This document shows, piece after piece, positions 2,590 through 58,495 of a stretch of DNA of 64,000 bases. The notes under the pieces were generated by a model. The model was not told the DNA's origin. It was given only the letters and a program-made list of their open reading frames with translations, and searched no databases. This DNA is from an uncultured Gammaproteobacteria bacterium (GTDB lineage Bacteria; Patescibacteriota; Patescibacteriia; Magasanikbacterales; GWA2-37-8). Both the position numbers and the translations under genes were made by a program. The stretch's first letter is position 1, and every line of letters starts with the position of its first letter. The DNA is taken from positions 15,595 through 79,594 of the forward strand of contig CAZBWU010000002.1 of NCBI GenBank assembly GCA_964496095.1, given 5' to 3'.

Positions 2590-2684
2590 TGTCATTCTGA
2601 GCAAAGCGAAGAATCTTTCCGTTAGCAAAACTTTTTCTCGGAAAGATCCCTCGTCGACCTAAAAAGGCCTCGCTCGGGATGACA
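2590..2684. repeat. MITE/REP-like palindromic element copy E2, starting 8 nt after the dnaB stop
   Basis: tgtcattctgagcaaagcgaagaatc ... ggaaagatccctcgtcgacc ... cgctcgggatgaca; the termini are inverted repeats. Confidence 0.75.
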
Positions 2685-2728
2685 ACGTTTTCTAAATTCA
2701 TAATTCATTATTTTTAATTCAAAAAAAT

Positions 2729-3031
2729 ATGTCCGTATTTTCAAAACTCAAACAGTTCAAAGATTTACGCGAACAAGGTAAAAAACTCCAGGGCGCTTTG
2801 GCTGGAGAATCAGCCACTGTAAATAATGGCGGTGTAGCTATAACTATGGATGGTAATTTTCAATTGACCGGAGTGGCAATTGACGAAGAACTACTAAACC
2901 CAAACAAAAAAGCAAAACTAGAAAATGCAATTAAAGACGCCCATGCCGACGCCCTCAAAAAAATGCAACGCATTATGGCTAGCAAGATGCAAGAAATGGG
3001 TGGCATGGAAAATTTATTTCCTAAAAATTAA
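2729..3031 (+). CDS. ybaB: Nucleoid-associated protein YbaB/EbfC family
   Basis: 100-aa protein with the YbaB signature (GGVAITMDGNFQLTGVAIDEELL...KKMQ), positioned immediately upstream of recR as in the conserved ybaB-recR pair. Confidence 0.85.
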   Translation: MSVFSKLKQFKDLREQGKKLQGALAGESATVNNGGVAITMDGNFQLTGVAIDEELLNPNKKAKLENAIKDAHADALKKMQRIMASKMQEMGGMENLFPKN

Positions 3032-3633
3032 TGTCTTACTCCCCCTCCATCCAAAATTTAATTAAGGCGTTTCGAAAACTTCCAACGGTCGGCCAAAGAA
3101 CGGCCGAACGTTTTGTTTTTTATCTTCTCAAATCTGGCAAAAAAGAAGTTGCGGAAATCACTCTGGCTCTCAAAGAACTGATAGACAACGTGAAGAGCTG
3201 TGAAATCTGCTGGGATTTTGCCGATCAAAGCCCTTGCGCTATTTGCAACAATAAAACTAGAGATCAAAATACAATTTGTATTATTAGCGAACCGCAAGAT
3301 ATCCAAGTCATCGAAGGCACTGGCGCTTATACCGGGTTGTACCATGTCTTACGCGGAGTACTAGAAGCTGGCGAAGAAGATTTGGGCAGGCTCAAAATAA
3401 AAGAGCTTTTTGAAAAATTAAAAAATAATACAAATATTACTGAACTTATCCTGGCGCTCAATCCTGATTTGTCAGGCGAAACCACCATGTTATTTTTGGA
3501 AAAAAATATAAAAATCAAATTTCCCAATCTCAAAGTGACACGACTCGCCCGAGGACTACCGATGGGAAGTGACTTGCAATATGCAGATGAGATTACTTTG
3601 GGTAGTGCGATAAAAAATAGGACTATTAAATAA
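3031..3633 (+). CDS. recR: Recombination protein RecR
   Basis: HhH motif (LPTVGQRTAERFVFYLL), a C4 zinc finger (CEICWDFADQSPCAIC), a Toprim region and a 200-aa length. Confidence 0.9.
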   Translation: MSYSPSIQNLIKAFRKLPTVGQRTAERFVFYLLKSGKKEVAEITLALKELIDNVKSCEICWDFADQSPCAICNNKTRDQNTICIISEPQDIQVIEGTGAYTGLYHVLRGVLEAGEEDLGRLKIKELFEKLKNNTNITELILALNPDLSGETTMLFLEKNIKIKFPNLKVTRLARGLPMGSDLQYADEITLGSAIKNRTIK

Positions 3634-3653
3634 TCATTCATTAAAATATAAAT

Positions 3654-4040
3654 ATGAGTGCAGAAGGAAGACCAGCTAGAGAAACCAGAACTTTAAACTC
3701 AAGAAAAAGCCGGGAAATAAAGAGGGAGCTTGGAGCAAGGTTTGTAACAGATCTCGCTATTGCCTTAAGTAGTGTAATTTACAAAGACAAAAAACTTCCT
3801 TCTGATACTTCCTGCACATCTTGTGCCTTTATTTCTGAAGCACTCACAAAATTAGCATACGATCTCAATGATCTCTCTGAACAAGAAAAACAAGAAATTA
3901 AAACAAGTCCCGGTGCAATACAAAGCTGGTTAGAAGGTAGAACTAATCCAACACCTGAAAAGTTTACAGCTATCAGGCAACTACTTATAAAAATTAAAGC
4001 CCCAGAAGAATTAATTCCTAAAGAAAATCTCTTTCAATAA
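3654..4040 (+). CDS. Hypothetical protein with a C-terminal XRE-like helix-turn-helix
   Basis: 128-aa ORF whose C-terminus (SPGAIQSWLEGRTNPTPEKFTAIRQLL) resembles the XRE-family HTH pattern. Followed by a terminator. Confidence 0.4.
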   Translation: MSAEGRPARETRTLNSRKSREIKRELGARFVTDLAIALSSVIYKDKKLPSDTSCTSCAFISEALTKLAYDLNDLSEQEKQEIKTSPGAIQSWLEGRTNPTPEKFTAIRQLLIKIKAPEELIPKENLFQ

Positions 4041-4059
4041 AAAATAAAGGGAAAGAACC

Positions 4060-4092
4060 AAAAAACCCGCCTTTACAGCGGGTTTTTTGTTT
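4060..4092. terminator. Bidirectional rho-independent terminator between the convergent XRE-like gene and rplU
   Basis: aaaaaacccgcctttacagcgggttttttgtttt: a GC stem flanked by an A-run and a T-run. Confidence 0.6.
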
Positions 4093-4107
4093 TAAATTTT
4101 GAAAATA

Positions 4108-4413
4108 TTACGCAATCTTTACCAAGCTGAATCTTTGTCTTTGACCTCTTACTTTGTGGTAACGAACTTTGCGTTTAAATTTCTCTACGCGCAAGGTGCG
4201 TTCTTTGCCTTGTTTTTCTAAAGTGGCGGAGATAGTCACACCCTCAAGAAAAGGTTGACCGATTTTAACATCACTACCGTCATCTTTGGCAGTTAATAAA
4301 ACTTGATCAAAAACAACTTTCTCACCTTCAACAACAGGTAATTTTTCTATTTTTAGAGTTTCTCCGGTCTTAACCAGATATTGTTTTCCGCCGGTGGCAA
4401 TTACTGCGAGCAT
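4108..4413 (-). CDS. rplU: 50S ribosomal protein L21
   Basis: 101 aa (MLAVIATGGKQYLVKTGETLKIEKL...) with the typical L21 sequence. Confidence 0.9.
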   Translation of the reverse strand: MLAVIATGGKQYLVKTGETLKIEKLPVVEGEKVVFDQVLLTAKDDGSDVKIGQPFLEGVTISATLEKQGKERTLRVEKFKRKVRYHKVRGQRQRFSLVKIA

Positions 4414-4488
4414 ATAATGAATTATGAAGACGAATTAAGAATAATGATAATAGTGTGCGTAGTATATGCTAAAGATTAATTTTTGTCA

Positions 4489-4544
4489 ACCCTGTTAAAT
4501 GCCCCTTTGGGGCAAACCCGATATATTCGGGTTATTTAACAGGG
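4489..4544. promoter_or_regulatory. Perfect 12-bp inverted repeat enclosing two hairpins, in the rplU 5' region (candidate r-protein leader structure or solitary MITE)
   Basis: ACCCTGTTAAAT-[GCCCCTTTGGGGC]-[AAACCCGATATATTCGGGTT]-ATTTAACAGGGT, flanked by the direct repeat GTCAACCC. Lies between the DUF192 gene stop and the rplU start on the transcribed (minus) strand. Confidence 0.4.
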
Positions 4545-4581
4545 TCAACCCAAAGATACTCCCAAAACCAGCTTAAAATAC

Positions 4582-5052
4582 TTAATCCGTGATTACTTGT
4601 AGCTCATCCCCTATTTTAACACCTGTCCGCTCCATAAACCCAGCTGGAACCTCCAAAACAAGAGTAGCTTCGGCACGTGGCTTGTATACCACCAGCTTTT
4701 CCTCTGGCACATGCATTTCTGGCGGTAAATTAGGGGCAATATCTACAATTGTATTATTATATAACCAAATTATATCAAGCGGAAAGTGCATGTCTCGCAT
4801 AACCATAGCATACCTATCACTAGTCGGAAAGACAAACAGCATGCCACCATACTTGCCCATATCTTTTCTATCGCTCCAGCCTTTGAATCTATGATTGGGA
4901 GTGTCGGCCACCAGAACATACAATTTCTGGTTGCCGATTTTTATAGTGGCCTTTGTCCAAATGGCACCATAGATTCTATAGCCAATAGAAATAACTACAA
5001 GAATTGCGATTAGTACCAGATGCCAAGTTTTAAATGTTTTTTTTTCTTGCAT
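4582..5052 (-). CDS. DUF192 (COG1430) family protein, membrane anchored
   Basis: N-terminal TM helix followed by a DUF192-like core (GMLFVF...MRDMHFPLDIIWL). Confidence 0.65.
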   Translation of the reverse strand: MQEKKTFKTWHLVLIAILVVISIGYRIYGAIWTKATIKIGNQKLYVLVADTPNHRFKGWSDRKDMGKYGGMLFVFPTSDRYAMVMRDMHFPLDIIWLYNNTIVDIAPNLPPEMHVPEEKLVVYKPRAEATLVLEVPAGFMERTGVKIGDELQVITD

Positions 5053-5061
5053 ATAAATAAA

Positions 5062-6069
5062 CTAAACTTTCTTTCGTCCAATCAAATGACTAACTATTGC
5101 CATTAAAATTACTAAAAACAATAAAGCGTAAAATTTTTGTAAACTTTGTAAAAACAAGGTGCTCAGACCAAATAAAATTGCCATAAAATATAAAAGACCA
5201 ACTGCTTGCCTCTGACTAAATCCGCCGTCCACCAAACGAAAATGAAGGTGTTCACGGTCGCCAGTAAAAATAGGCTGCCCTCGACGGACTCTTATATATA
5301 TTACACGAATTAGGTCAAAAACGGGAATAGCCATCACTAGTAGCGCAGTCGCAAGTTTTCCACCACCGACAATCGCCAATACCCCAATCATAAACCCGAG
5401 CAACATACTACCACTCTCTCCTAAAAATATTTTGGCTGGATAGAAATTAAAAACCAAAAATCCTAAACATACTCCCAAAAAAATAAGCGCAACCAAACTA
5501 ACATTGGGTTGATAAAATTTGGTAATGGAAGTGAGTAGATATATAACAAACGCGCCAATAGCTACCACTCCTGTCGCTAGACCGTCCAGGCCATCTAAAA
5601 TTTTTACCGTATAAGTCGTGCCCATCAACCAAAAAAATACCAAAATACCCCCAAGCATATTTCCAAACTCAATATAACCGCCAAAAGGGTTTGTAATTTT
5701 ACTAATCCACGGAACAAAAAGAGCTGAGATCATAATAGCAATTACTACAAATAACAAACGCACTTTGGCTGACATAGGCCTAATATCATCCGCTATGCCA
5801 ACAAGCAACATAATAACGGAAGAAATCAGCGCCACCATTAAAAAATCTTGAATTCGCTCTATTCCTCTAATAGGATGAAAAATAAGCAAAAATAAAATTA
5901 CTGCCCAAAAGGATAAAAAAATTGACACCCCGCCAAGCAGGGCCACAGGCTTGTCGTGTAAATGCCTACCGCCATCTGGCCGATCGACAATACTTAACTT
6001 CAAAGCCACCTTTCTAACTAGAAAAGTTGATATGAGTGATAATAAAAAAGCGATTAGAAAATAAAACAT
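5062..6069 (-). CDS. Glycosyltransferase family 4 polyprenyl-phosphate sugar-1-phosphate transferase (MraY/WecA-like)
   Basis: 335 aa, polytopic, with the DD motif (IADDIRP) and ILDGLDGLATG characteristic of the MraY/WecA family. The length favours WecA/TagO-like over MraY. Confidence 0.7.
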   Translation of the reverse strand: MFYFLIAFLLSLISTFLVRKVALKLSIVDRPDGGRHLHDKPVALLGGVSIFLSFWAVILFLLIFHPIRGIERIQDFLMVALISSVIMLLVGIADDIRPMSAKVRLLFVVIAIMISALFVPWISKITNPFGGYIEFGNMLGGILVFFWLMGTTYTVKILDGLDGLATGVVAIGAFVIYLLTSITKFYQPNVSLVALIFLGVCLGFLVFNFYPAKIFLGESGSMLLGFMIGVLAIVGGGKLATALLVMAIPVFDLIRVIYIRVRRGQPIFTGDREHLHFRLVDGGFSQRQAVGLLYFMAILFGLSTLFLQSLQKFYALLFLVILMAIVSHLIGRKKV

Positions 6070-6072
6070 AAA

Positions 6073-8868
6073 CTATTCTACCGACATCATCCCTCCAGCT
6101 CCAACCGTCACCGTACTACCCCTTCTCAGTTTACCTTGCAATAACAATTCTGCCAATTTGTTTTCTACTTTCTCCTGTAAAGCCCTACGCATAGGTCTGG
6201 CACCAAACTCGGCATCAAAACCAACATCAACCAAAAATTCTAAGGCTTCATCGGTCGCTACCAAAGTCACGCCTTTTTCTTCAATATTTTTGGCAAGCTT
6301 CAAAAACATTTGGTTGGCGATTTTTTTGATACCATCTCTGTCCAAATCATTAAATAAAACAATACCATCAAACCGGTTCAAAAATTCCGGACGATAATAT
6401 TGTTTGAGTTCACCGTGAAGAAGTTGATTGAGAACTTTTTCATGCGGAACGCCATTTCGGTTTTGCTCTTGCACAAAGGCTGTGCCGGCATTGGAAGTAG
6501 CAATGATAATGACATTGGTGAAATCATAGACATGACCCGTACTGTCGCTCAACCGGCCATCATCCATAACTTGCAAAAATAAATTCAAAATATCAGGATC
6601 AGCTTTTTCCATTTCATCCAAGAGTACGAGTGAAAATGGATTCTGACGTATAGCTTCGGTCAGCACCCCGCTCGCCTTTTCTCCTGGCATACCAATAAGC
6701 CGATAAATACTAGACTTGTCTTGGTATTCACTCATATCTAGGCGAATCATACGATCTTCTCCGCCAAAATAAATATCAGCGATAGTTTTGGCAAGTTCGG
6801 TTTTACCTACACCAGTTGGACCCAAAAATAAAAAGCTAGCAATTGGCCGTTTGCCCGAACGAATCTCGGCTCTCGCTCTACGCAAGGCATTGGCTACGGC
6901 ACTCACGCCTTCTTCTTGACCAATCACGCGCTTGCGCATTTCTTCTTCTAGGTGCATTAATTTTTCTGATTCATTACTAGATATTGCCGACAAAGGAATC
7001 TTTGTTTTTTCGGTAATAACAGTGGCCACTTCTTCTTTAGTCACTAGAGAATTAGCGCCTTTGGTATTATGAGTAAGGCTCGCAGCTTCGGTAATAATCT
7101 CCAGCGCATTGCCAGGCAAAACTGTTTCATGCAAAAATTTCATGGAAAATTCTACCGCTTTTTCTATAGCCGAGTAAGAGAAAAAAACATTTTGTTTATA
7201 CTCCAAAGAACCAACTCTTGATTCCAAAACTTGAATAGCCTGATCTTCGTTCATCTCGGCAATATTTACTTTGGTAAAGACATCTTTGAGCGAAGAATTT
7301 GAAAAACGTCCGGCATAATCTTCGGTAGTAGTGGTAGCAATAGTAAGCACCTTATCACTACGCAAAAATTCAGCGATAGTATCGGCCATATCAAGACTAC
7401 CACTCTCACCGACCGACACACCCACAAGCTCATGCAAATTATTGATAAATAAAATCACATTTCGCGCTCGAGAAATCTCTTGCATGATAGATTGCAATCT
7501 CTCCACCGCTCCCTCGGGGCTTGTGCCGGCGAGCAAAGCCGAACTGCTAAGCCTAATCAATCTTTTATCTTTAAGTTTACTTGGCACATCTCCAGAGATC
7601 ATACTTTGAGCAATTCCCTCTACAATCGTTTTTTTACCCACCCCATGCTCGCCTACCAAAATCACATTATTTTGGCCACCATCAATTACTTGGAAAATCT
7701 GATCTATCTCAGCGGTACGAGCCACACATTCTTCTAGTTGGCCAAAATGAGCCATCATCGTAATATCAGAACTAAAACTATTTAAGTACGGTGTCGCTAG
7801 AGCAGTCATCGCTTTATCCATGCCATACTTGGAATGATGACTGATAGCCTTTTGCATTTTGAGGTACTCATGATGAAAACGTTCACGCATTCTCGCCCAC
7901 TCAATCACATTAGTCAGCTGTCTTTCGGAAATATCAAAATCAAACAACATGTCTTGCAAAGCAGGAGTTTCTCGCAATACTACAATCAATAACTCAGTCA
8001 CACTCACATAATCCTGCCGAGCCAAACAGGCTTCTTCGTAGGCTTGGAAAATTATTTGGTGAATATCTTTAGATACTATTGGCGACACACCATCATAAGC
8101 TTTTTGCTTATCAACCATTGGGAAAATATGCTCTAATTCTTTTTGCAAAGAACTAGCCGGAATTCCAAGTCTAATAAAAATATTGGAAATTCTATTAAAT
8201 GACAATAGTGTATAAAATATATGTTCAGGTTTTAATTCTTTGACTCTCATTTTATCAGCCAAACCATAGCTCTTAGCTAGAGCTGTCAAAGCTTCTTCAG
8301 TAAAAGCATTGGCAATATTAAATTTTTTTCTGCCAGAAAATTTTTTCGCTTGTGCCCAAGAATCTACAACCGCATCTGCCTTTTTCTCTTTATGTTGATA
8401 ATCATGTTTGAATGTTTCCATTTTACCCACAGATTCTTTCTTACGGATAATTTGATACCAAAGATATAGGATTGATAAGACACCTAACCAAAATAAAAAT
8501 TCTGCCCAATTATTTATTCCCTTAAAAAACAAAGACCATTGTTTCGGATCTGCTAATAAAGCAAACTTATCTTGCTTGAAAATAATAAACCCAGCCCAAA
8601 TCCAAGCGTTGAGCCAAAAGACAAAAGTTGTCACCATTCTTACGCGTTTCAAAATTCTACGCGCTTTTTGCAAAGCCAGATTATATTTGGTGAGCGAAAA
8701 ATCCCAATACAACCATAACCCACGCCTAGACATACCAAAAGCCATACTTTGACACTCTTTACATTTTCGGAGTTTGACAAAGCCTGTGCCTTGGCAGGTT
8801 TCACAAAAAAGTAATTTTAATGATTCTGATTTTTTAAATTGCTGCATATATAAGTCCGTAAAAAACAA
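6073..8868 (-). CDS. ClpC/ClpB-family double-AAA+ unfoldase with an N-terminal zinc ribbon and two TM helices
   Basis: Two AAA modules (Walker A GEHGVGKKT and GPTGVGKT; D2 Walker B LLDEME; sensor SRLIGMPGE), Clp_N-like repeats and a short middle region. The N-terminus carries CETCQ...CKECQ followed by two hydrophobic helices. The D1 Walker B reads FINNLH rather than FIDE(I/L)H. Confidence 0.85.
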   Translation of the reverse strand: MFFTDLYMQQFKKSESLKLLFCETCQGTGFVKLRKCKECQSMAFGMSRRGLWLYWDFSLTKYNLALQKARRILKRVRMVTTFVFWLNAWIWAGFIIFKQDKFALLADPKQWSLFFKGINNWAEFLFWLGVLSILYLWYQIIRKKESVGKMETFKHDYQHKEKKADAVVDSWAQAKKFSGRKKFNIANAFTEEALTALAKSYGLADKMRVKELKPEHIFYTLLSFNRISNIFIRLGIPASSLQKELEHIFPMVDKQKAYDGVSPIVSKDIHQIIFQAYEEACLARQDYVSVTELLIVVLRETPALQDMLFDFDISERQLTNVIEWARMRERFHHEYLKMQKAISHHSKYGMDKAMTALATPYLNSFSSDITMMAHFGQLEECVARTAEIDQIFQVIDGGQNNVILVGEHGVGKKTIVEGIAQSMISGDVPSKLKDKRLIRLSSSALLAGTSPEGAVERLQSIMQEISRARNVILFINNLHELVGVSVGESGSLDMADTIAEFLRSDKVLTIATTTTEDYAGRFSNSSLKDVFTKVNIAEMNEDQAIQVLESRVGSLEYKQNVFFSYSAIEKAVEFSMKFLHETVLPGNALEIITEAASLTHNTKGANSLVTKEEVATVITEKTKIPLSAISSNESEKLMHLEEEMRKRVIGQEEGVSAVANALRRARAEIRSGKRPIASFLFLGPTGVGKTELAKTIADIYFGGEDRMIRLDMSEYQDKSSIYRLIGMPGEKASGVLTEAIRQNPFSLVLLDEMEKADPDILNLFLQVMDDGRLSDSTGHVYDFTNVIIIATSNAGTAFVQEQNRNGVPHEKVLNQLLHGELKQYYRPEFLNRFDGIVLFNDLDRDGIKKIANQMFLKLAKNIEEKGVTLVATDEALEFLVDVGFDAEFGARPMRRALQEKVENKLAELLLQGKLRRGSTVTVGAGGMMSVE

Positions 8869-9187
8869 CTATCGGCAGAACTAACCAGATTAAAAATAAA
8901 ATTGAACAAAAAATTAACCAAAGAAAAAGTCCGAAAATACGAACTATAATTTGCACTAATCTGACAAAAAAACTGATAACTCGTCCTTGAAAATCAAACT
9001 GGCCATACATTGGCACAAACAGATTGGCCAACCACAAACCCGGAGCCAGGCTTTCATTACCCGTTTTGAGCAGACTAAAACATTGGCGCAAAGCATAGAG
9101 AATGCCCTTGCTATACCACCAAAGAGGAAAATAAAAAATATCAATAACAGATTCCAAAAGTAAATGCTGGAAAATAAGAATACCCAT
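8834..9187 (-). CDS. Hypothetical small membrane protein
   Basis: 117 aa, hydrophobic, overlapping the start of the ClpC-like gene. No recognisable domain. Confidence 0.35.
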   Translation of the reverse strand: MGILIFQHLLLESVIDIFYFPLWWYSKGILYALRQCFSLLKTGNESLAPGLWLANLFVPMYGQFDFQGRVISFFVRLVQIIVRIFGLFLWLIFCSILFLIWLVLPIVVFYGLIYAAI

Positions 9188-9302
9188 AATAGTTTTTATT
9201 ATACCATAAAAATGAAATTGTGCCGACTTTATTTATCCAAAGCTTGACGCAGTAATCCATCTATGTTAAATAAACTTCCAGGCCTAAAGGAGGGCCACTA
9301 CT

Positions 9303-9722
9303 ATGACGACTCATGACTGGAGAAAGCGCACGTCGGAGGGCGAGAAGCAACGACTGATCGGCAGGGCGTGGGGGTCGGTGGTGGGCACCTACCTCTGGTA
9401 CGAGATCGGGGAACGCGATCAGATCGTTCGCGAGCGGCCGAACATCATCGCCAACTGCTTCACCGATCACGTGGTGGTGCCCGGTGACATCGAGTGTCAC
9501 CGCAGCAAGTACCTCGCGGGCAACCCATGGCTCCTGCGACTGCGCGGCGGCAATCTCATCTTGCACCCCTCGCTGATCTGGGGGGGAGCAAGGCGCTACT
9601 GCCCGCTCTACCAGATCGGGCACGTGGTCGAGAGCAAGTGCGTGGACGACTGCCTCAACTTCTGGCAACGGATGGACGTCAACGCTCGCGCCGGCGGGCA
9701 CAGCCACAGCGACGACATCTGA
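9303..9722 (+). CDS. Hypothetical protein encoded in a GC-rich island (foreign-looking cassette)
   Basis: 139-aa ORF preceded by a strong SD (aaaggaggg, 7 nt from the ATG). The local GC content is far above the flanking DNA, the amino-acid composition is protein-like (W, Y, C, H rich), and a terminator follows. No recognised domain. Confidence 0.45.
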   Translation: MTTHDWRKRTSEGEKQRLIGRAWGSVVGTYLWYEIGERDQIVRERPNIIANCFTDHVVVPGDIECHRSKYLAGNPWLLRLRGGNLILHPSLIWGGARRYCPLYQIGHVVESKCVDDCLNFWQRMDVNARAGGHSHSDDI

Positions 9723-9866
9723 TCATGCCCTTCGGGGCCAGATCCGCGAGCGGCTCGGGCGCACCATACGACCCGACCACCGCTCAGATCCCAGACCCGA
9801 GCCGTTCACGCAATCTAATAATTAATTTGTTAAATTGCGCGAGCTCGGATCTGTATATAATTTAAA

Positions 9867-9897
9867 AACCCCGCCTTTCACGAAAGGCGGGGTTTTT
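9867..9897. terminator. Bidirectional rho-independent terminator between the GC island and ftsL
   Basis: aaaaaccccgcctttcacgaaaggcggggttttt: a perfect GC stem with A/T runs on both sides. Confidence 0.65.
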
Positions 9898-9918
9898 AGT
9901 ATATTTTTTTATTCAAAC

Positions 9919-10281
9919 TTACCTCTTCGCAACCTCATTATTATTAAAGCTCAATTGCTTGGCAACTCCAACTGATTCAACCATGTTTAATTTTTCAACT
10001 CTAGTCGCAATACTATTTATAGAACTATTATCTGCGATTTGTACTTCTAATTTTTGAATTTCATCTTGAAGACTATCTGTTTTTTGTTCTAACACTTTTA
10101 TTTGATAACCACTGGTCGCAGAAGCGGAAATATTAAAAATATAAGCCGCACCAAAAATAAATATAATTGAAAATAAACCAACACGAACCGCACGAGAATT
10201 CAGCCATCCAGGCAAACTAATAGTCTGTAAAGAAAATTTGAAATTCTGATATTTATTTTTGATTTGGCGTTTGATGGACAT
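9919..10281 (-). CDS. ftsL: Cell division protein FtsL-like (septum formation initiator family)
   Basis: 120 aa with a single TM helix followed by a coiled coil, located immediately downstream of rsmH in the conserved dcw order mraZ-rsmH-ftsL. Confidence 0.5.
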   Translation of the reverse strand: MSIKRQIKNKYQNFKFSLQTISLPGWLNSRAVRVGLFSIIFIFGAAYIFNISASATSGYQIKVLEQKTDSLQDEIQKLEVQIADNSSINSIATRVEKLNMVESVGVAKQLSFNNNEVAKR

Positions 10282-10286
10282 ACGAA

Positions 10287-11210
10287 TTAAATTTTTTCCA
10301 TAACCCTTAGTTTAGCGCTTCTGGCTCGTGGATTTGTCTCCAGCTCAGCTTCTGAGGCGATAATGGGTTTTTTATTAATTAATTTTATAGTTCTATTTTC
10401 GATTGATTTGAAATATTGTTTAACTATCCTATCTTCCAGCGAATGAAAGGTAATAACCGCTAATCTACCACCGCTTACGAGCACTTCTACGGCTTGCGGT
10501 AAGGCTTTTTTAAGATTTTCTAATTCGTGATTAACTTCTATTCGCAGTGCTTGGAATACTTTTGTGGCCGGATGTAAACCGCCAATCCAAGGAACTTCTT
10601 TTTGCGAATTTAATTTTTCTCTATACGCTTGTAAAATTATTTCTGTTAACTCTCCTGTCTTTTCTATTTTTTTATTTTTTCTATAAACTGTTATTGCTTT
10701 GGCAATCTCTCGGCTCAGTTGTTCTTCGCCTAAATTTTTAAAAATCACAGCCAACTCATTTTCACTATAACTATTTACCACCTCAGCAGCCGTCCAACTT
10801 TCGCCTTCAGATTTGAGCATCTCACCAGAGTCATACCGCATATCTAGGACCTCGTCTGTCAAAAAGCTAAATCCTCTCCCCCGCTCTTCAAATTGCGGTG
10901 TGGACCAACCCAAGTCCATCAAAATTGCATTTACTGTTTTAAAATCGTTTTTTTCAACAATATTTTTTAAATTGGCAAAATTGTCTCTTACTAGTACGGC
11001 TTTATCCTCAAATCGATACAGAAATCTTTTAGCTCGCAAAATCGCTTCTAGATCCAAATCTATGCCAAGCAATTTGCCAGTCGGCGCAATCTTCTCCAGC
11101 ATGGCTTCGCTATGCCCTGCATCACCGAGTGTACAATCAATGACATTGCTTCCTGCTTTTAGTTGTAAAGAGTCAATCGTTTCAGTTGGTAATACCGGTA
11201 CATGTTTCAT
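10287..11210 (-). CDS. rsmH: 16S rRNA (cytosine1402-N4)-methyltransferase RsmH (MraW)
   Basis: N-terminal VPVL motif, SAM-binding region (DCTLGDAGHSEAMLEK) and a 307-aa length. Adjacent to mraZ. Confidence 0.9.
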   Translation of the reverse strand: MKHVPVLPTETIDSLQLKAGSNVIDCTLGDAGHSEAMLEKIAPTGKLLGIDLDLEAILRAKRFLYRFEDKAVLVRDNFANLKNIVEKNDFKTVNAILMDLGWSTPQFEERGRGFSFLTDEVLDMRYDSGEMLKSEGESWTAAEVVNSYSENELAVIFKNLGEEQLSREIAKAITVYRKNKKIEKTGELTEIILQAYREKLNSQKEVPWIGGLHPATKVFQALRIEVNHELENLKKALPQAVEVLVSGGRLAVITFHSLEDRIVKQYFKSIENRTIKLINKKPIIASEAELETNPRARSAKLRVMEKI

Positions 11211-11220
11211 ATTGTTTTTA

Positions 11221-11652
11221 TTACACTCCTAGCTCCCCCATCTTCTCAGCAATCGCTCCACTTTCGGCTTCAGTTTGATTCTTGTATTTATTCCATAATT
11301 CATCATCCCAGATTTCCAAGCGATTATAGAGACCGGCAACAACCAAAGTTTTTTTGATACTAGCAAACTTACGTAAGTACTCTGGCAAAATCACTCGGCC
11401 TTGTTTATCAAGTTCTACATCCATCGCACCAGCAAGCATGAGTCTAGAAAAAGCACGACTGTTGGATTGACTAATTGGCAGAGCGGCTAATTTCTCAGCG
11501 AGTTTTTCCCATTCAGTTTTGGTATAAAGAAAAAGACAATTATCCAAACCTCTAGTAACGACTGCGCCTTTGCTAAGTTCACGACGAAATTTAGCTGGAA
11601 TAGCCATTCTGCCTTTATCATCTAGATTGTGGCTATATTCACCAATGAACAT
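11221..11652 (-). CDS. mraZ: Transcriptional regulator MraZ
   Basis: 143 aa with the duplicated MraZ fold signature (KGRMAIPAKFRREL ... KQGRVILPEYLRKF). Confidence 0.9.
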   Translation of the reverse strand: MFIGEYSHNLDDKGRMAIPAKFRRELSKGAVVTRGLDNCLFLYTKTEWEKLAEKLAALPISQSNSRAFSRLMLAGAMDVELDKQGRVILPEYLRKFASIKKTLVVAGLYNRLEIWDDELWNKYKNQTEAESGAIAEKMGELGV

Positions 11653-11717
11653 ATGATTGTGAAATTTTATTTAAGCAGGAAGACAAGCATTTTCCCCACT
11701 TCATACCACTACAACCC

Positions 11718-11746
11718 ATTTTACACCACTTCTAAACACAAGTCAA
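11718..11746 (-). promoter_or_regulatory. Candidate sigma70 promoter for the mraZ operon (TTGACT-17-TAAAAT)
   Basis: On the minus strand, TTGACT (plus-strand 11741-11746), a 17-nt spacer and TAAAAT (plus-strand 11718-11723), roughly 65 nt upstream of the mraZ ATG. Confidence 0.35.
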
Positions 11747-11787
11747 CATTTTATGCCATTTTAAACACGTATTTTTTTGGCTAATAT

Positions 11788-11817
11788 AAAACAAAAACAG
11801 CCCCCTTGTGGGAGCTG
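11788..11817 (-). terminator. Rho-independent terminator of the coiled-coil protein gene
   Basis: Minus-strand hairpin CAGCTCCCACAAGGGGGCTG followed by TTTTTGTTTT. Confidence 0.55.
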
Positions 11818-11847
11818 TGGATAAGATTTATTAAATTATTATAAATT

Positions 11848-12237
11848 CTATGCCAAACCCAAAGCCGGCTTAACATGTCTCATATCTTTTTCCAAAACTT
11901 CAACTCTGTCTGTCAGATTTTTTTGATCATGGGCTAACAGGGTTTGCTCTTCGTCTTTTTTGGTATATAAACCAACAATTTTATCTAAGGTGTTCATTAT
12001 TTTTGACATATCTTCTTTTGTAGCCATGTTATCCAAAACATAATCAAGCTTCTCGCTATGTTCCGCGACTGTGCGAGCCAAAAAATCAAGCTTCTGATCA
12101 TGATCTTCAAGCTTGTCATCTATTTTATCAAACTTTTTATCTATGTTATCAAACTTAAAAACAAACTCTTCAAGTTTGTTATCTATTTTATCAAATCTTT
12201 TTTCTTGTTCCATAAAATTTGTCCCAATTTTTAACAC
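11848..12237 (-). CDS. Hypothetical coiled-coil protein with FDKIDxKLE-type repeats
   Basis: 129 aa with repeated FDKIDNKLEEF / FDNIDKKFDKIDDKLEDH units. No recognisable domain. Confidence 0.4.
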   Translation of the reverse strand: MLKIGTNFMEQEKRFDKIDNKLEEFVFKFDNIDKKFDKIDDKLEDHDQKLDFLARTVAEHSEKLDYVLDNMATKEDMSKIMNTLDKIVGLYTKKDEEQTLLAHDQKNLTDRVEVLEKDMRHVKPALGLA

Positions 12238-12273
12238 TTGTTATTATACTATTTCAACAAATTAACTGTCAAA

Positions 12274-13629
12274 CTATACCTCAACCTCCAACCCAAAGAT
12301 CACCGGCATTGCCTGTATCCCCAAATCTTCTGTCACTTTTTTTGCCAGAATTGCTGACACCCCCGGTTCGCCATGATTGAACAAAACTTTTTTCGGCTTG
12401 CTTTTATTACTATCTATCCATTTCATTAGTTTGGCTTGATCGCCGTGGGCTGATAAGGCGCCAATGGCTTTGATTTGGCAATGCACCGGAATATGTTCTC
12501 CCATAATTTCTACAGGTGACTGACCGTCCAGAATTCTTCTACCCAATGTATTTTCTGATTGATAACCAATAATAAGCAACGTATTTCTGGCATCCGACAA
12601 ATAACGCATCGCATGATGCATAATACGCCCCCCATTCATCATCCCCGAACCGGCAATAACTATTTTTGGTCCCGGTACATTATTTATTTTTTTTGATTCT
12701 TCTTTGGTTTCCGTCATCACCAGTCCTGGGAAATCAAACAATTCATCGCCATTTTTATATAACTTCGCTGCTTCCACATCGTAATACTTAGGATATTTAA
12801 GATACGTTCTGATAGCTTTGATAGCCAAGGGACTATCCAAAAAAATCGGCACTTTTGGCAAGATATGCTGACGATCAATGAGATTATTTAATTCATAAAT
12901 TAATTCTTGCGTTCGCTCTAGAGAAAAAGATGGGATCATTAGCGTGCCTCCGCGAGCAATCGCTTCGCGAATAAGAGTTGCCAAAATTTCTTGACGTCTA
13001 GTAATAGTTTCATGCAAACGATTACCATAAGTAGATTCACAAACAAGCACATCTATACCGGCTGGGAGGTTTTCGGTTTCTTTTAAGATCGGCACATTGA
13101 CATTGCCAACATCGCCTGAGAACACAACACGCTTTCCTTCGGCTTCAACTTCTACAAACGCAGAACCAAAAATATGACCTGCATCGTGCAGTGTAAAAGA
13201 TACTTCCGGAGTGAGAGTAAATTTTTCATTATATTCAACCGGCTTAAATCTTTCCATTACTTTTGTAATATCACCTTCGTCATACAAAGCTGGAATATTG
13301 TAATGAGTCTGGTTATATAACATGATATGCAAAGCATCTTCCATAATCAGTTCGGCCAGTTCTATCGTCGGAGGGGTGGCATAAAAACGACCTTCATAAC
13401 CGTCTTTGACTAGTAGTGGCAATCGACCCACGTGGTCAAGATGAGCGTGAGTGATAATTACCCCAGATAATTCTGACGGTTTAAAAGAAAGTTGATCTTT
13501 ATTTTTGGCTTCACTAAATTGATTGCCTTGAAACATTCCGCAGTCAACCAAAAAATGCTTAGCACCAACCGTAAACATACTGCAAGAACCTGTGACTTCG
13601 CCTGCCGCGCCGAAGAAAGACAACTTCAT
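12274..13629 (-). CDS. MBL-fold beta-CASP ribonuclease (RNase J-like)
   Basis: HAHLDHVG motif, beta-CASP and MBL motifs, and a conserved N-terminus MKLSFFGAAGEVTGSC. The track ORF extends a further 49 aa upstream through the repeat E3; ATG 13627-13629 is taken as the likely true start. Confidence 0.8.
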   Translation of the reverse strand: MKLSFFGAAGEVTGSCSMFTVGAKHFLVDCGMFQGNQFSEAKNKDQLSFKPSELSGVIITHAHLDHVGRLPLLVKDGYEGRFYATPPTIELAELIMEDALHIMLYNQTHYNIPALYDEGDITKVMERFKPVEYNEKFTLTPEVSFTLHDAGHIFGSAFVEVEAEGKRVVFSGDVGNVNVPILKETENLPAGIDVLVCESTYGNRLHETITRRQEILATLIREAIARGGTLMIPSFSLERTQELIYELNNLIDRQHILPKVPIFLDSPLAIKAIRTYLKYPKYYDVEAAKLYKNGDELFDFPGLVMTETKEESKKINNVPGPKIVIAGSGMMNGGRIMHHAMRYLSDARNTLLIIGYQSENTLGRRILDGQSPVEIMGEHIPVHCQIKAIGALSAHGDQAKLMKWIDSNKSKPKKVLFNHGEPGVSAILAKKVTEDLGIQAMPVIFGLEVEV

Positions 13630-13643
13630 ATAAATAAGGTATC

Positions 13644-13719
13644 TGTCATCCTGAATGAAATGAAGGATCTCTGTCTCAATCACCGCCGGACAGAGATTCT
13701 TCGCAAGCTCAGAATGACA
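13644..13719. repeat. MITE/REP-like palindromic element copy E3, 15 nt upstream of the RNase J-like start
   Basis: tgtcatcctgaatgaaatgaaggatctctgtc ... ccggacagagattcttcgcaagctcagaatgaca. An open reading frame is retained through it. Confidence 0.75.
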
Positions 13720-13821
13720 ATTAAAAAATGCTTTATTGACTGGATAAAGTATACCAAAGAAAATAATATAAAACAAAAAAGCACGCGGGTGCGAGCAATA
13801 ATTTAAAACTTTATTTATGAG

Positions 13822-13850
13822 GGCTGGGTCGAGGAACGGTCGACCCAGCC
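13822..13850 (-). terminator. Hairpin (11-bp perfect stem) downstream of the Cys-rich island gene
   Basis: GGCTGGGTCGA-ggaacgg-TCGACCCAGCC. The downstream tract is only weakly T-rich. Confidence 0.3.
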
Positions 13851-13946
13851 ACGTGGCATGATGGTCTACCGTTCCTAGGTGGTCAGGCTAATAGCCCGAC
13901 CGTTGTTGGCGGTGGCTCAGCCACCCGTCGGCACGCCCCTTGCGGG

Positions 13947-14309
13947 CTAGCCGTGCTTGCAGGCGCAGCCGTTGCCCTTGTCGTCGCAGCCCGTCCAGTG
14001 CAGGCAGAAGGGCACGCAGGTGAAGCCCTGAGCCTCGACCTGCGCACAGCAGTCCGTGTCACCCCCGACACCGCACTCCATGCAGATCGCCGCCCAGAGG
14101 TTGTCACCGCAGTCGATGACGTACACTCCGCGAGCCGCGGCTTCCGGGGTGGAGTTGTCCTCCTCCGTGCAGGCCGCGCCGGTGCAGGACGAGTCGTTGT
14201 CGTTGATGCGGGTGACGAGGGTCACACCGTCATCGGTGGGGACGTCCTCCGTACAACCACCGACGGTGAGGGTGGCGAGGACCGCGAGCAAAGTGGTGAA
14301 GGTACGCAT
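13947..14309 (-). CDS. Secreted (probable lipo)protein, cysteine-rich, encoded in a GC-rich island
   Basis: 120 aa with signal peptide MRTFTTLLAVLATLTVGGC and about 18 Cys in the mature part (CxxC, CC and CxC motifs). SD aggag about 10 nt upstream. The local GC is far above the genome background. Confidence 0.5.
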   Translation of the reverse strand: MRTFTTLLAVLATLTVGGCTEDVPTDDGVTLVTRINDNDSSCTGAACTEEDNSTPEAAARGVYVIDCGDNLWAAICMECGVGGDTDCCAQVEAQGFTCVPFCLHWTGCDDKGNGCACKHG

Positions 14310-14473
14310 TTTTGAAACTGACTCCTGTCAAGAAAACGCCTTCGAGGAAACCTTTCCTCGGTTAGACCCCAACACCTTGCCCTATTTTCCCCTTTTTGTC
14401 AAGGGTTTTATCCCCATTTTTATATGTTTTTTGAGATGTTCAAAAACAAATTTTTCTGCTACAATAATGCAAT

Positions 14474-15153: not shown

Positions 15154-15299
15154 TGTCATCCCGAGCGAAGCCGCTCCTGCGGCTGACGAGGGATCTAAAC
15201 ATTAATTTTAATTTAATGAATAGATTCCTCACACCTAAAGGGGGTTCGGAATGACAACGACCAACCGGACAGAGATTCTTCACTCCGTTCAGAATGACA
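15154..15299. repeat. Composite MITE/REP-like elements E4 (full unit plus half unit) between the stop of the previous gene and murJ
   Basis: tgtcatcccgagcgaagccgctcctgcggctgacgagggatct ... ggttcggaatgaca, followed by accaaccggacagagattcttcactccgttcagaatgaca. Confidence 0.75.
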
Positions 15300-19460: not shown

Positions 19461-19538
19461 TGTCATTCTGAGCAAAGCGAATAATCCCTGTCCAACGAAA
19501 CAACCGGACAGAGATCCTTCACTGCGTTCAGGATGACA
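19461..19538. repeat. MITE/REP-like palindromic element copy E5, ending 5 nt before an ATG
   Basis: tgtcattctgagcaaagcgaataatccctgtcc ... ggacagagatccttcactgcgttcaggatgaca. The terminal AGGA may serve as an SD surrogate. Confidence 0.75.
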
Positions 19539-31985: not shown

Positions 31986-32071
31986 TGTCATCCCGAGCGA
32001 AGCCGCTTTTGCGGCTGACGAGGGATCTATACTTTAATGAATAGATTCCTCACACAAGGTTCGGAATGACA
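31986..32071. repeat. MITE/REP-like palindromic element copy E6, between the rplI stop and the pyrG start
   Basis: tgtcatcccgagcgaagccgcttttgcggctgacgagggatct ... ggttcggaatgaca. Confidence 0.75.
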
Positions 32072-54231: not shown

Positions 54232-55271
54232 CCCAAATTATGCAGAAAATCCATCACTATTTTTTCCACATCATCGGCGGTTTTTGCGCCTTCCATCAGC
54301 CTAACCCGAAGTTCTTTAGCTCCGTCAAATCCATTGACATAAGCCTTATAATGTTTTTTCATGATATCAAAATTTTTATAGTCTCCCAGGACTTTTTCAA
54401 ACAAATGTGTATGCTCTACCATCACCATAAGTTTCTCCTCAACACTCGGCGTTGTCATCCTGAACGGAGTGAAGGATCCCTTAAACTCAGACGATAGGGA
54501 TTCTTCATTTCTCTCAGAATGACAACCGGAAAAAAGCCAGGGATTACCGAAAATCCCTCGACCAATCATCACGCCGTCTGCGCCGGTTTGTTTTACTCTT
54601 TCTTCAGCCTCGGATAAATTTTTGACATCACCATTCCCTAAAATCAAAGTCCTACTTTCTGAACTATCATATTTATTTCTAATCTCAACAGCATCTTTGA
54701 CAGTTTCCCAATTGGCAGGAACTTTGGACATCTCTTTGCGCGTACGAGCGTGCACAGTAATTGCAGCTGGTTCAGTTTCCAACAAGTACGGCAACCACTC
54801 AGACAAAGTATTTTTGTTATAACCGATTCTAGTTTTGACTGACACTGGCAAATTACCCGCTCCACGTTTAGTTTCTTTGATAATCTCTTGAGCTAACAAT
54901 GGGTGCTTTATCAGGCACGCTCCCCCGCCCTGTTTTTCTACATTTCTGTCAGGACAGCCCATATTAATATCAATTCCATCAAAACCAAGTTCTTGAATGA
55001 GCAATGCTGTTTTATAAAAATTCTCAGGATTGGAACCAAAAATCTGCGCCACAATTGGACGCTCTGCTTCGCTATACATAAAATCTATCAGAAGTTTGTC
55101 TCGGCCAGCTGAGACCAACCCATCACAAGCTACAAATTCGGTCCACATGACGTCTGGTTTACCGTATTTGGCAATTACACGTCGAAAAGCAGCGTCCGTG
55201 ACATTAGCCATCGGCGCCAAAACAAAAATTGGCTTTTTTAGTTTTTGCCAAAAGCCTGTGTGCATATGCAT
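54228..55271 (-). CDS. dus: tRNA-dihydrouridine synthase (Dus family) carrying an in-frame 24-aa insertion derived from a palindromic repeat
   Basis: TIM-barrel Dus motifs (LAPMANVTD, catalytic Cys region NMGCP, GADGVMIGRGIFGNPWLF). The segment SGCHSERNEESLSSEFKGSFTPFRMTTP is encoded by repeat E8 (54453-54524). Confidence 0.85.
   Translation of the reverse strand: MHMHTGFWQKLKKPIFVLAPMANVTDAAFRRVIAKYGKPDVMWTEFVACDGLVSAGRDKLLIDFMYSEAERPIVAQIFGSNPENFYKTALLIQELGFDGIDINMGCPDRNVEKQGGGACLIKHPLLAQEIIKETKRGAGNLPVSVKTRIGYNKNTLSEWLPYLLETEPAAITVHARTRKEMSKVPANWETVKDAVEIRNKYDSSESRTLILGNGDVKNLSEAEERVKQTGADGVMIGRGIFGNPWLFSGCHSERNEESLSSEFKGSFTPFRMTTPSVEEKLMVMVEHTHLFEKVLGDYKNFDIMKKHYKAYVNGFDGAKELRVRLMEGAKTADDVEKIVMDFLHNLG
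54453..54524. repeat. MITE/REP-like palindromic element copy E8, lying within the dus coding sequence (72 bp, in-frame)
   Basis: tgtcatcctgaacggagtgaaggatccc ... gggattcttcatttctctcagaatgaca. Confidence 0.8.
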
Positions 55272-56351: not shown

Positions 56352-56423
56352 TAGCCCCAACGGGAATCGCACCCGTCTTTCGACCTTGAGAAGGTCACGT
56401 CCTAACTGATAGACGATGGGGCC
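56352..56423 (-). tRNA. tRNA-Glu (anticodon CUC)
   Basis: Manual cloverleaf: acceptor GGCCCCA/TGGGGCT (G1-U71 wobble), U8, D-stem GTCT/GGAC, anticodon stem TGACC/GGTCG, loop TTCTCAA (anticodon CTC, A37), T-stem ACGGG/CCCGT, discriminator A. The 5' sequence GGCCCCATCGTCTA is typical of tRNA-Glu. Confidence 0.75.
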
Positions 56424-58395: not shown

Positions 58396-58495
58396 TGTCA
58401 TCTTGAGCGAAGTCGAAAGATCCCTTATACTAAGCTATTTAAAATTCTTGGTTTAAGGGATTCCTACACTACGGTCGGAATGACAAGTACATTGC
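58396..58495. repeat. MITE/REP-like palindromic element copy E10, 20 nt upstream of the typA start
   Basis: tgtcatcttgagcgaagtcgaaagatccc ... gggattcctacactacggtcggaatgaca. Confidence 0.75.

Follow-up and report, generated by a model that had tools for sequence, protein, structure and literature searches.

Bacteria of the candidate phyla radiation (CPR, Patescibacteria) live as obligate episymbionts and have tiny genomes; little is known of how they obtain and renew their surface and conflict genes. Gene exchange among them has been reported as frequent and as staying mostly within the phylum, and their genomes carry islets of atypical composition and patchy distribution, each a single accessory gene probably exchanged mainly among CPR lineages (PMC12455944). 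A second point of comparison is the phage moron, an independent promoter-gene-terminator unit of deviant GC (guanine plus cytosine) content inserted between two genes (PMC3594210). Here we describe a genuine, sharply bounded, foreign-looking single-gene cassette, island A, that can be classed with the small, horizontally acquired islets already known and is moron-like in architecture; it lies between ftsL and the gene for a 117-aa membrane protein (p117) in a 64,000-nucleotide stretch of a Magasanikbacterales genome (contig CAZBWU010000002.1 of assembly GCA_964496095.1, positions 15,595 to 79,594; hereafter the window). A second GC-rich island, island B, lies 4 kb from it. We rank first, with a probability of about 0.6, the reading that single-gene cassettes were acquired horizontally and that the same slots were reused as hot-spots, ahead of in-situ maintenance of the high GC and of a cassette-recombination system, both of which are live rivals.

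Island A resembles the CPR islets in its atypical composition, its patchy distribution, its single accessory gene and its probable exchange mainly among CPR lineages, but here the contrast is extreme (64% against 38% GC, and 0.86 against 0.3 GC at third codon positions, GC3), a foreign Shine-Dalgarno sequence (SD) stands in an SD-poor genome, and the same two slots have been reused across species with the cargo replaced and the ends kept. Like a moron, it comprises one open reading frame (ORF1) with a putative promoter and a terminator (shared with ftsL), is set between two otherwise adjacent genes and deviates in composition; unlike a moron, it lies outside a prophage, among mraZ-rsmH-ftsL, a ClpB-like gene, an MraY-like gene and MurJ, and a phage, prophage or plasmid origin was rejected after PHROGs, INPHARED, PLSDB and IMG/VR gave no matches.

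Two further systems invite comparison. An integron attC site requires a hairpin with R'' (RYYYAAC) and R' (GTTRRRY) at its base and L''/L' inside. Island A is like an integron cassette in its size (~600 bp), its single ORF, the imperfect 3' hairpin next to the junction and the interchangeable cargo at a fixed site; it differs in that no R''-L''/L'-R' stands at the base of the hairpin (9792-9853), which is CCGAGC/GCTCGG with GTTAAAT/ATCTAAT near the apex, in that the hairpin motif is unique to one site, in having one cassette per site with no array, in its seemingly own promoter, and in that no IntI is seen among the neighbours, and we rejected the hairpin as an attC candidate. In the hypervariable surface-protein loci of naturally competent bacteria, alleles are replaced by homologous recombination via conserved flanks; site B, where island B lies, is similar in that the promoter, signal-peptide region and 3' untranslated region (3'UTR) are conserved and the mature lipoproteins are unrelated even between sister genomes. 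Such loci, however, are usually genome-like or lower in GC, whereas here every allele seen is ~25 points higher.

The window has a mean GC of 38.7%, and its 500-bp windows outside both islands average 0.384 +/- 0.033 with a maximum of 0.464. A sequence-only reading made earlier had remarked on a jump in GC at 9265-9800, and the measurement confirms it: the segment stands at 0.631 and its core (9283-9811) at 0.643, z ~7.8 against the windows outside the islands. ORF1 has a GC of 0.59/0.45/0.86 at its three codon positions, the pattern that marks coding sequence of high-GC genomes. The comparison of codon usage with the rest of the contig, which that reading had proposed, agrees: GC3 is 0.86 in ORF1 and 0.88 in ORF2, the gene of island B, against 0.24-0.35 in native genes. 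Third-position usage in the island genes is C 0.45-0.62 and G 0.26-0.40, and the values for ORF1 (C 0.51, G 0.36) match those of a native-composition homologue in a 62% GC contig (L076; such numbers denote loci fetched for comparison). Two overlapping frames, an antisense ORF at 9261-9707 (-) and an ORF at 9494-9865 (+), were discarded, as the codon-position pattern is absent from them and homologues exist only for the + frame of ORF1. Finally, the non-coding 3'UTR of island A also has ~0.70 GC; non-coding 3'UTRs as GC-rich as the ORFs argue for regional ancestry or mutation, not codon selection.

The translation signal is equally foreign. An 8-nt SD (AAAGGAGG, 9288-9295) stands ahead of the ATG of ORF1, and SDs are present in all cassettes of the clade, whereas among the 38 native genes checked a single one has an SD match of at least 5 nt and the other 37 have none; the contrast of a strong SD with weak native ones, drawn earlier from the sequence, is thus borne out by the count. 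A near-identical leader (GCCCTAAGGAGGGCCA) precedes a 48%-identical ORF1 homologue in the unrelated contig L079. Across the same 38 starts, several native genes show a -10 box no more than about 10 nt from the start codon (p117, 9187-9203, is one of them), and with native genes nearly SD-less this suggests that initiation in the window organism may be leaderless or SD-independent. Base composition, third-codon usage, the strong SD in an SD-less genome, the GC-rich 3'UTR and clean empty sites in relatives support the alien character of the segment.

Those empty sites were seen in relatives taken from an RsmH scan of GTDB species representatives, which puts the window among Patescibacteria of the Candidatus Magasanikbacteria type; the closest is L004 (RsmH 92% identical to that of the window), with L005, L006, L007, L008 and L010 at 74-79%. 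In L005, L012, L014 and L015 the spacer between ftsL and p117 is only 78-114 bp and consists of the terminator hairpin and the promoter, and measured against them the inserted segment runs from about 9227 to 9855 (~630 bases). At this site L008, too, has a GC-rich island, oriented as in the window and truncated where its contig stops; it carries the closest copy of ORF1 found anywhere (65% aa identity). L006 carries there a 680-bp GC-rich island with another cargo, a 168-aa lipoprotein (lipobox LVTAC), and shares with the window the last ~75 bp of the cassette, including the 3' hairpin module. On a neighbour-joining tree of MraZ plus RsmH, L006 is the sister of L008 and the empty-site lineages are interleaved with the carriers, so that presence (window, L008, L006) is patchy and the empty sites are intact. 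L004 is rearranged downstream of ftsL and is not usable for site A; over its positions 7335-12942 synteny breaks directly after ftsL, with a long hairpin, rplT-infC and smpB in place of p117 and clpB, and a GC-rich (0.56) non-coding stretch at 10219-10652 is possibly a tmRNA gene.

The same comparison corrects the setting that the sequence-only reading had given the cassette, namely the place where the division and cell wall (dcw) cluster would normally continue after mraZ-rsmH-ftsL. In relatives ftsL is followed by p117 and then a ClpB-like gene, never by ftsI/mur; and with mraZ, rsmH and ftsL on the minus strand and ORF1 on the plus strand, the cassette is convergent to ftsL and does not continue the operon. 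We accordingly dropped ORF1 as a dcw gene, given also its lack of a Pfam match and a slot that is geneless in relatives with empty sites. The GC-stem terminator that had been assigned to the cassette is real, but it belongs to ftsL: an equivalent follows ftsL in relatives with an empty site A, and in the window it is shared bidirectionally.

Upstream of that terminator the 3'UTR of ORF1 is strongly structured (RNA fold z = -9.1) and 79% identical to that of L008. Its last hairpin (GC-rich base, AT-rich top) is conserved in the window, L008 and L006, where 3 of its 24 predicted pairs have compensatory double changes, and its sequence motif has no other copy in the window or the 83 fetched loci. 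A structured RNA gene was considered and rejected; Rfam gave nothing at gathering scores and chance sub-threshold matches only (the Thr leader at 32 against 55 bits).

Island B (GC-rich at 13777-14386, 62% GC) lies just upstream of a beta-CASP/RNase J-like gene and is bounded against empty sites in L010, L012 and L015. Lipoprotein ORFs occupy site B in the window, L004, L005 and L008, all with GC3 of 0.87-0.93, and their lipoboxes, read by eye from the translations, are LTVGGC, VAGTGC, LLVAAC and LGMAAC respectively. Between the window and its sister genome L004 the flanks are 82-87% identical and the cassette promoter and 3'UTR are shared (81% identity), while the segment from 5'UTR through ORF (window 13926-14377) has no detectable similarity; the L004 ORF is 32% aa identical to that of L005. 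With flanks and cassette ends alike and ORFs unrelated, the cargo has been replaced since the window and L004 split and the ends have been kept. ORF2 found only itself in an indexed protein search, and its single-sequence structure prediction (pLDDT, predicted local distance difference test, 41) is unusable. When 57 low-GC loci (652 kb) were scanned, ORFs of high GC3 turned up nowhere but at these two slots of the clade and at the loci of ORF1 homologues. At site B of L007 (~190-740), L009 and L013 stands a normal-GC gene of ~190 aa in place of a GC-rich lipoprotein cassette. The 3'UTR of ORF2 holds two mutually exclusive perfect hairpins at 13821-13905 (-), AGGAACGGT/ACCGTTCCT and GGCTGGGTCGA/TCGACCCAGCC, upstream of the beta-CASP gene; the pair looks like a terminator/antiterminator arrangement, part of which is also conserved in L004.

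No homology had been recognised for the 139-aa product of ORF1 from sequence alone, and a word-indexed search matched it only to itself; exhaustive HMMER over 1.84 billion representatives overturned this, with 37 homologous representatives at E<1e-3 and 21 at E<1e-10. The earlier worry that the ORF might have neither homologues nor coding statistics in any frame is answered by these 37 and by the GC3 signature in the + frame. Outside the clade, non-self homologues reach at best 43-50% identity. Family alignment A1 has the conserved blocks W..P.SE..K..LIG..WG...YLWY.LG, FGDIELH.S..PG..LRLRG, RGRYCPLYQ.GH and INF..W, many members have an N-terminal hydrophobic extension, and the amino-acid composition of the 37 spans AT-type to GC-type proteins. 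None of the 37 has a Pfam match, PADLOC and PHROG searches gave none for the family, and its profile matches no PDB sequence. The AlphaFold model of ORF1 (pLDDT 90; predicted template modelling score, pTM, 0.83) resembles only Rep endonuclease domains in Foldseek, weakly and non-significantly. We take ORF1 to represent a new small protein family whose confidently predicted fold has no counterpart among solved structures. An IS200/IS605 or HUH element was rejected on the same Pfam, PDB and Foldseek results and on the single copy in the window. Family genes are solitary, patchy in occurrence and set in varied housekeeping neighbourhoods, and between the window and L008 the ratio of nonsynonymous to synonymous divergence (dN/dS) is 0.59 for ORF1 against 0.02-0.09 for the flanking genes; these three features would fit an accessory function, either in conflict or at the cell envelope.

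The carriers of this family range from contigs in which the gene has native composition (L076, L083) through intermediates to low-GC contigs in which it forms a strong GC island (L079, L082). GC3 of the family gene falls from 0.84 in L079 (flank GC 0.40) and 0.77 in L082 (flank GC 0.375) to 0.64 in L081, 0.62 in L078, 0.54 in L080 and 0.40 in L083, a graded series as predicted by transfer followed by amelioration. Homologues with readable context lie in small-gene, CPR-like neighbourhoods.

That the sequence is an assembly chimera or contaminating DNA, an alternative the sequence-only reading had kept alongside transfer, is very improbable. The exact ORF1 protein is recorded in NCBI (contig of 457,569 bp) and recurs in the Logan assemblies of two runs, whose contigs match the window at 2626-13673 and 8739-13673 with 100% identity and so run through both junctions of island A; island B is on a third Logan contig (13646-14927). 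Homologous or analogous cassettes at the same site also occur in metagenome-assembled genomes from unrelated projects. The sharp compositional boundaries and the end of the L008 contig within its own island would suit a chimera, but the Logan contig ends (2626 and 13646-13673) fall within copies of a palindromic repeat with TGTCATYCYGAGC termini and hence are not located at the islands. This repeat is a short intergenic family resembling miniature inverted-repeat transposable elements or repetitive extragenic palindromes, with 17 terminus matches in the window against 0.16 expected.

How the cassettes came to their slots can be put together as follows. Under horizontal acquisition with hot-spot reuse, island A would be a self-contained unit of an AT-rich promoter-like segment, an SD leader, a GC-rich ORF and a hairpin-rich 3'UTR, settled in a Magasanikbacteria-like (CPR/Patescibacteria) chromosome at an intergenic position that tolerates insertion, with the ftsL terminator on one side and the promoter of the neighbouring gene on the other; ORF1 would be read convergently to ftsL and terminate at the shared bidirectional hairpin, and its 3' hairpins may stabilise the mRNA. 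The cargo is probably a cytoplasmic 139-aa alpha/beta protein, from a family scattered as solitary genes in small CPR-like genomes of widely differing GC, and may have an accessory role of envelope or conflict type. To judge from its composition, its codons and its SD, the cassette would stem from a gene pool of ~62-70% GC in which SDs direct the start of translation. Island B would be built likewise, its cargo being a Cys-rich lipoprotein, and both slots would be hot-spots in the clade: some genomes have the cassette, some have none and some have an unrelated GC-rich ORF in its place, with the 3' hairpin module retained at site A and the promoter and 3'UTR at site B. Entry and exchange may have proceeded by natural transformation and recombination at the conserved cassette ends or flanks.

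Several observations weigh against this account. No donor was identified, and a literature search found nothing specific on the SRA runs or on horizontal gene transfer in Magasanikbacteria. No integrase, transposase or tRNA gene adjoins either island (the only tRNA gene of the window is at 56352); the one candidate for a target-site duplication, an 8-bp repeat (TGTTAAAT, 9264-9271 and 9828-9835), has a chance probability of ~0.04-0.1, is compatible with chance and was rejected; and the promoter-like TTGACG of island A was picked out by eye only and not flagged by a consensus scan. The window and L008 copies of ORF1 share the same junction at 77% nucleotide identity (23% of nucleotides differ), and the synonymous sites of the flanking genes are saturated (synonymous divergence, dS, 1.8-3.8), so a single recent acquisition cannot explain both. 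Of the high-GC foreign origin first proposed, composition, codons, SD and empty sites stand; "recent" holds only in a relative sense. The raw dS of ORF1, 0.41, would point to a younger split, but near a GC3 of 0.87 saturation is reached at a low proportion of synonymous differences, which weakens its comparison with the flanks; in a codon-bias-aware test ORF1 has 51/67 identical codons against 40.7 expected (z 2.9), within the z of 0.7-3.8 for the flanks, and the idea of a cassette copy much younger than the host genome is weakened accordingly. Moreover, 8 of the 12 differences at four-fold sites are C<->G, a sign that the copies diverged under a GC-favouring regime and not under the AT pressure of the host; polarisation by an outgroup had too few informative sites. 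Two possibilities follow: either the copies parted while still in high-GC donors and reached this slot in two separate entries, for which targeting or recombination via conserved ends would be required, or the GC has been held up in situ.

The second of these is the core of the strongest rival, a long-resident native locus inherited vertically from the clade ancestor, with its high GC maintained in place, for instance because selection favours a stable or structured mRNA or because the locus, as a recombination hot-spot under diversifying selection, undergoes GC-biased gene conversion. Besides the identical-codon excess and the C<->G differences just described, it would account for the occupation of both sites across species with synonymous-saturated flanks, for an ORF1 identity between window and L008 (65%) close to that of FtsL (71%) and RsmH (74%), and for the absence of any ameliorated intermediate among the four high-GC3 ORFs of site B. 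Yet lineages with clean empty sites are interleaved with the carriers, the non-coding 3'UTR is as GC-rich as the ORF, a foreign-type SD is kept in an SD-less genome, the graded GC3 series of the ORF1 family in other low-GC genomes looks like amelioration, and we know of no mechanism that keeps GC3 at 0.9 against 0.3 in a 600-bp patch; we consider such a locus unlikely.

Next in rank, and rather improbable, comes a site-specific mobile cassette, integron-like or otherwise novel, whose recombinase would be encoded elsewhere and whose recombination site would be the conserved 3' hairpin. Site-specific mobility would explain why cassettes arrived more than once at positions identical to the nucleotide, and the picture of exchanged cargo with kept ends, a one-ORF size of ~600 bp, the occurrence of GTTAAAT, which fits GTTRRRY, close to each end of island A and a long imperfect 3' hairpin common to the window, L008 and L006 despite different cargo, with its three compensatory pairs, would suit it. 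The hairpin motif, however, is confined to site A; its GTTRRRY/RYYYAAC-like pair lies at the top and not the base, which departs from attC geometry; there is no cassette array; the site-B cassettes have different 3' structures; the cassettes appear to have their own promoters, unlike integron cassettes; a Pfam scan of 10 other window ORFs gave no integrase; and in relatives the visible neighbours are housekeeping genes. That the cassette came straight from a high-GC host of the episymbiont, actinobacterial or other, is more improbable again, although third positions of ~0.5 C and ~0.36 G with strong SD use are typical of high-GC Gram-positive bacteria and one homologue lies in the 62% GC contig L076. 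The actinobacterial donor suggested earlier gains no support from the matches, which include no named actinobacterial protein and lie, where context is readable, in the CPR-like neighbourhoods mentioned above. A broader version of hot-spot reuse is rather improbable: a few fixed intergenic "expression slots", each a retained promoter and 3' hairpin/terminator, into which GC-rich SD-led ORFs would be swapped repeatedly from a high-GC pool (perhaps a mobile element not yet seen, perhaps the host of the symbiont), a system that would work like an integron and have no recognisable attC or IntI, or else slots in which a local process would hold GC3 at ~0.9 within an AT-rich genome; their cargo would be envelope lipoproteins and the ORF1 family.

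Coordinates of the islands, their flanking genes and the palindromic repeats in the window
Feature	Position	Strand	Basis or remark
117-aa membrane protein p117 with promoter (TCGGCA-N17-TATAAT, 9198-9226), left flank of island A	8834-9226	-	synteny, promoter scan
AT-rich 5' part of the insert	9227-9282	+	not present at empty sites L005, L012, L014, L015
Putative promoter-like TTGACG	9244-9249	+	by eye
Leader GGCCTAAAGGAGGGCC, containing the 8-nt SD AAAGGAGG	9283-9298	+	sequence read
ORF1, 139 aa, alpha/beta family	9303-9722	+	GC3 0.86, 37 homologues, AlphaFold
GC-rich (~0.70) structured 3'UTR of ORF1	9723-9855	+	three hairpins: 9721-9744, 9748-9785, 9792-9853
Perfect 17-bp hairpin, bidirectional terminator, host-derived	9863-9898	.	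common to ftsL (-) and ORF1 (+)
ftsL-like gene, right flank, convergent with ORF1	9919-10281	-	weak Pfam DivIC match; synteny with relatives
rsmH	10287-11210	-	
mraZ	11221-11652	-	
Island B cassette	~13798-14440	-	bounded against empty sites L010, L012, L015
Structured, hairpin-rich 3'UTR of island B	13798-13946	-	
ORF2, 120 aa, 13 Cys, lipobox LTVGGC	13947-14309	-	GC3 0.88
Island B SD CAGGAG	14323-14328	-	
Island B promoter-like TTGACA	14397-14402	-	
Palindromic elements with TGTCATYCYGAGC termini	702, 2590-2684, 13636-13719, 15154-15299, 19461-19538, 31986-32071, 40738, 54453-54524, 56540, 58396-58485		window

Two of the neighbouring genes have features of their own. The ClpB-like AAA+ protein (6073-8868, -, 931 aa) has an N-terminal CxxC...CxxC zinc-ribbon-like motif followed by hydrophobic segments and is 53-72% conserved in relatives. 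Between mraZ and the beta-CASP gene, the ORF at 11848-12237 (-) encodes a 129-aa coiled-coil-like protein with heptads of the DKKFDKID type and carries five 21-nt periodic repeats at 12043-12205.

The locus goes beyond a routine islet in its triple foreign signature (GC, codons and SD), its new protein family, the reuse of slots with swapping of cargo and the persistence of the GC-rich state. Two precisely delimited cassettes, foreign in composition, codons and translation signal and set in slots that are reused across species, offer a tractable handle on gene flow into CPR genomes. If a donor were found in the same samples, it might reveal the identity of the partners of these bacteria; and should the GC-rich state turn out to be upheld in place, the usual picture of amelioration would be called into question.

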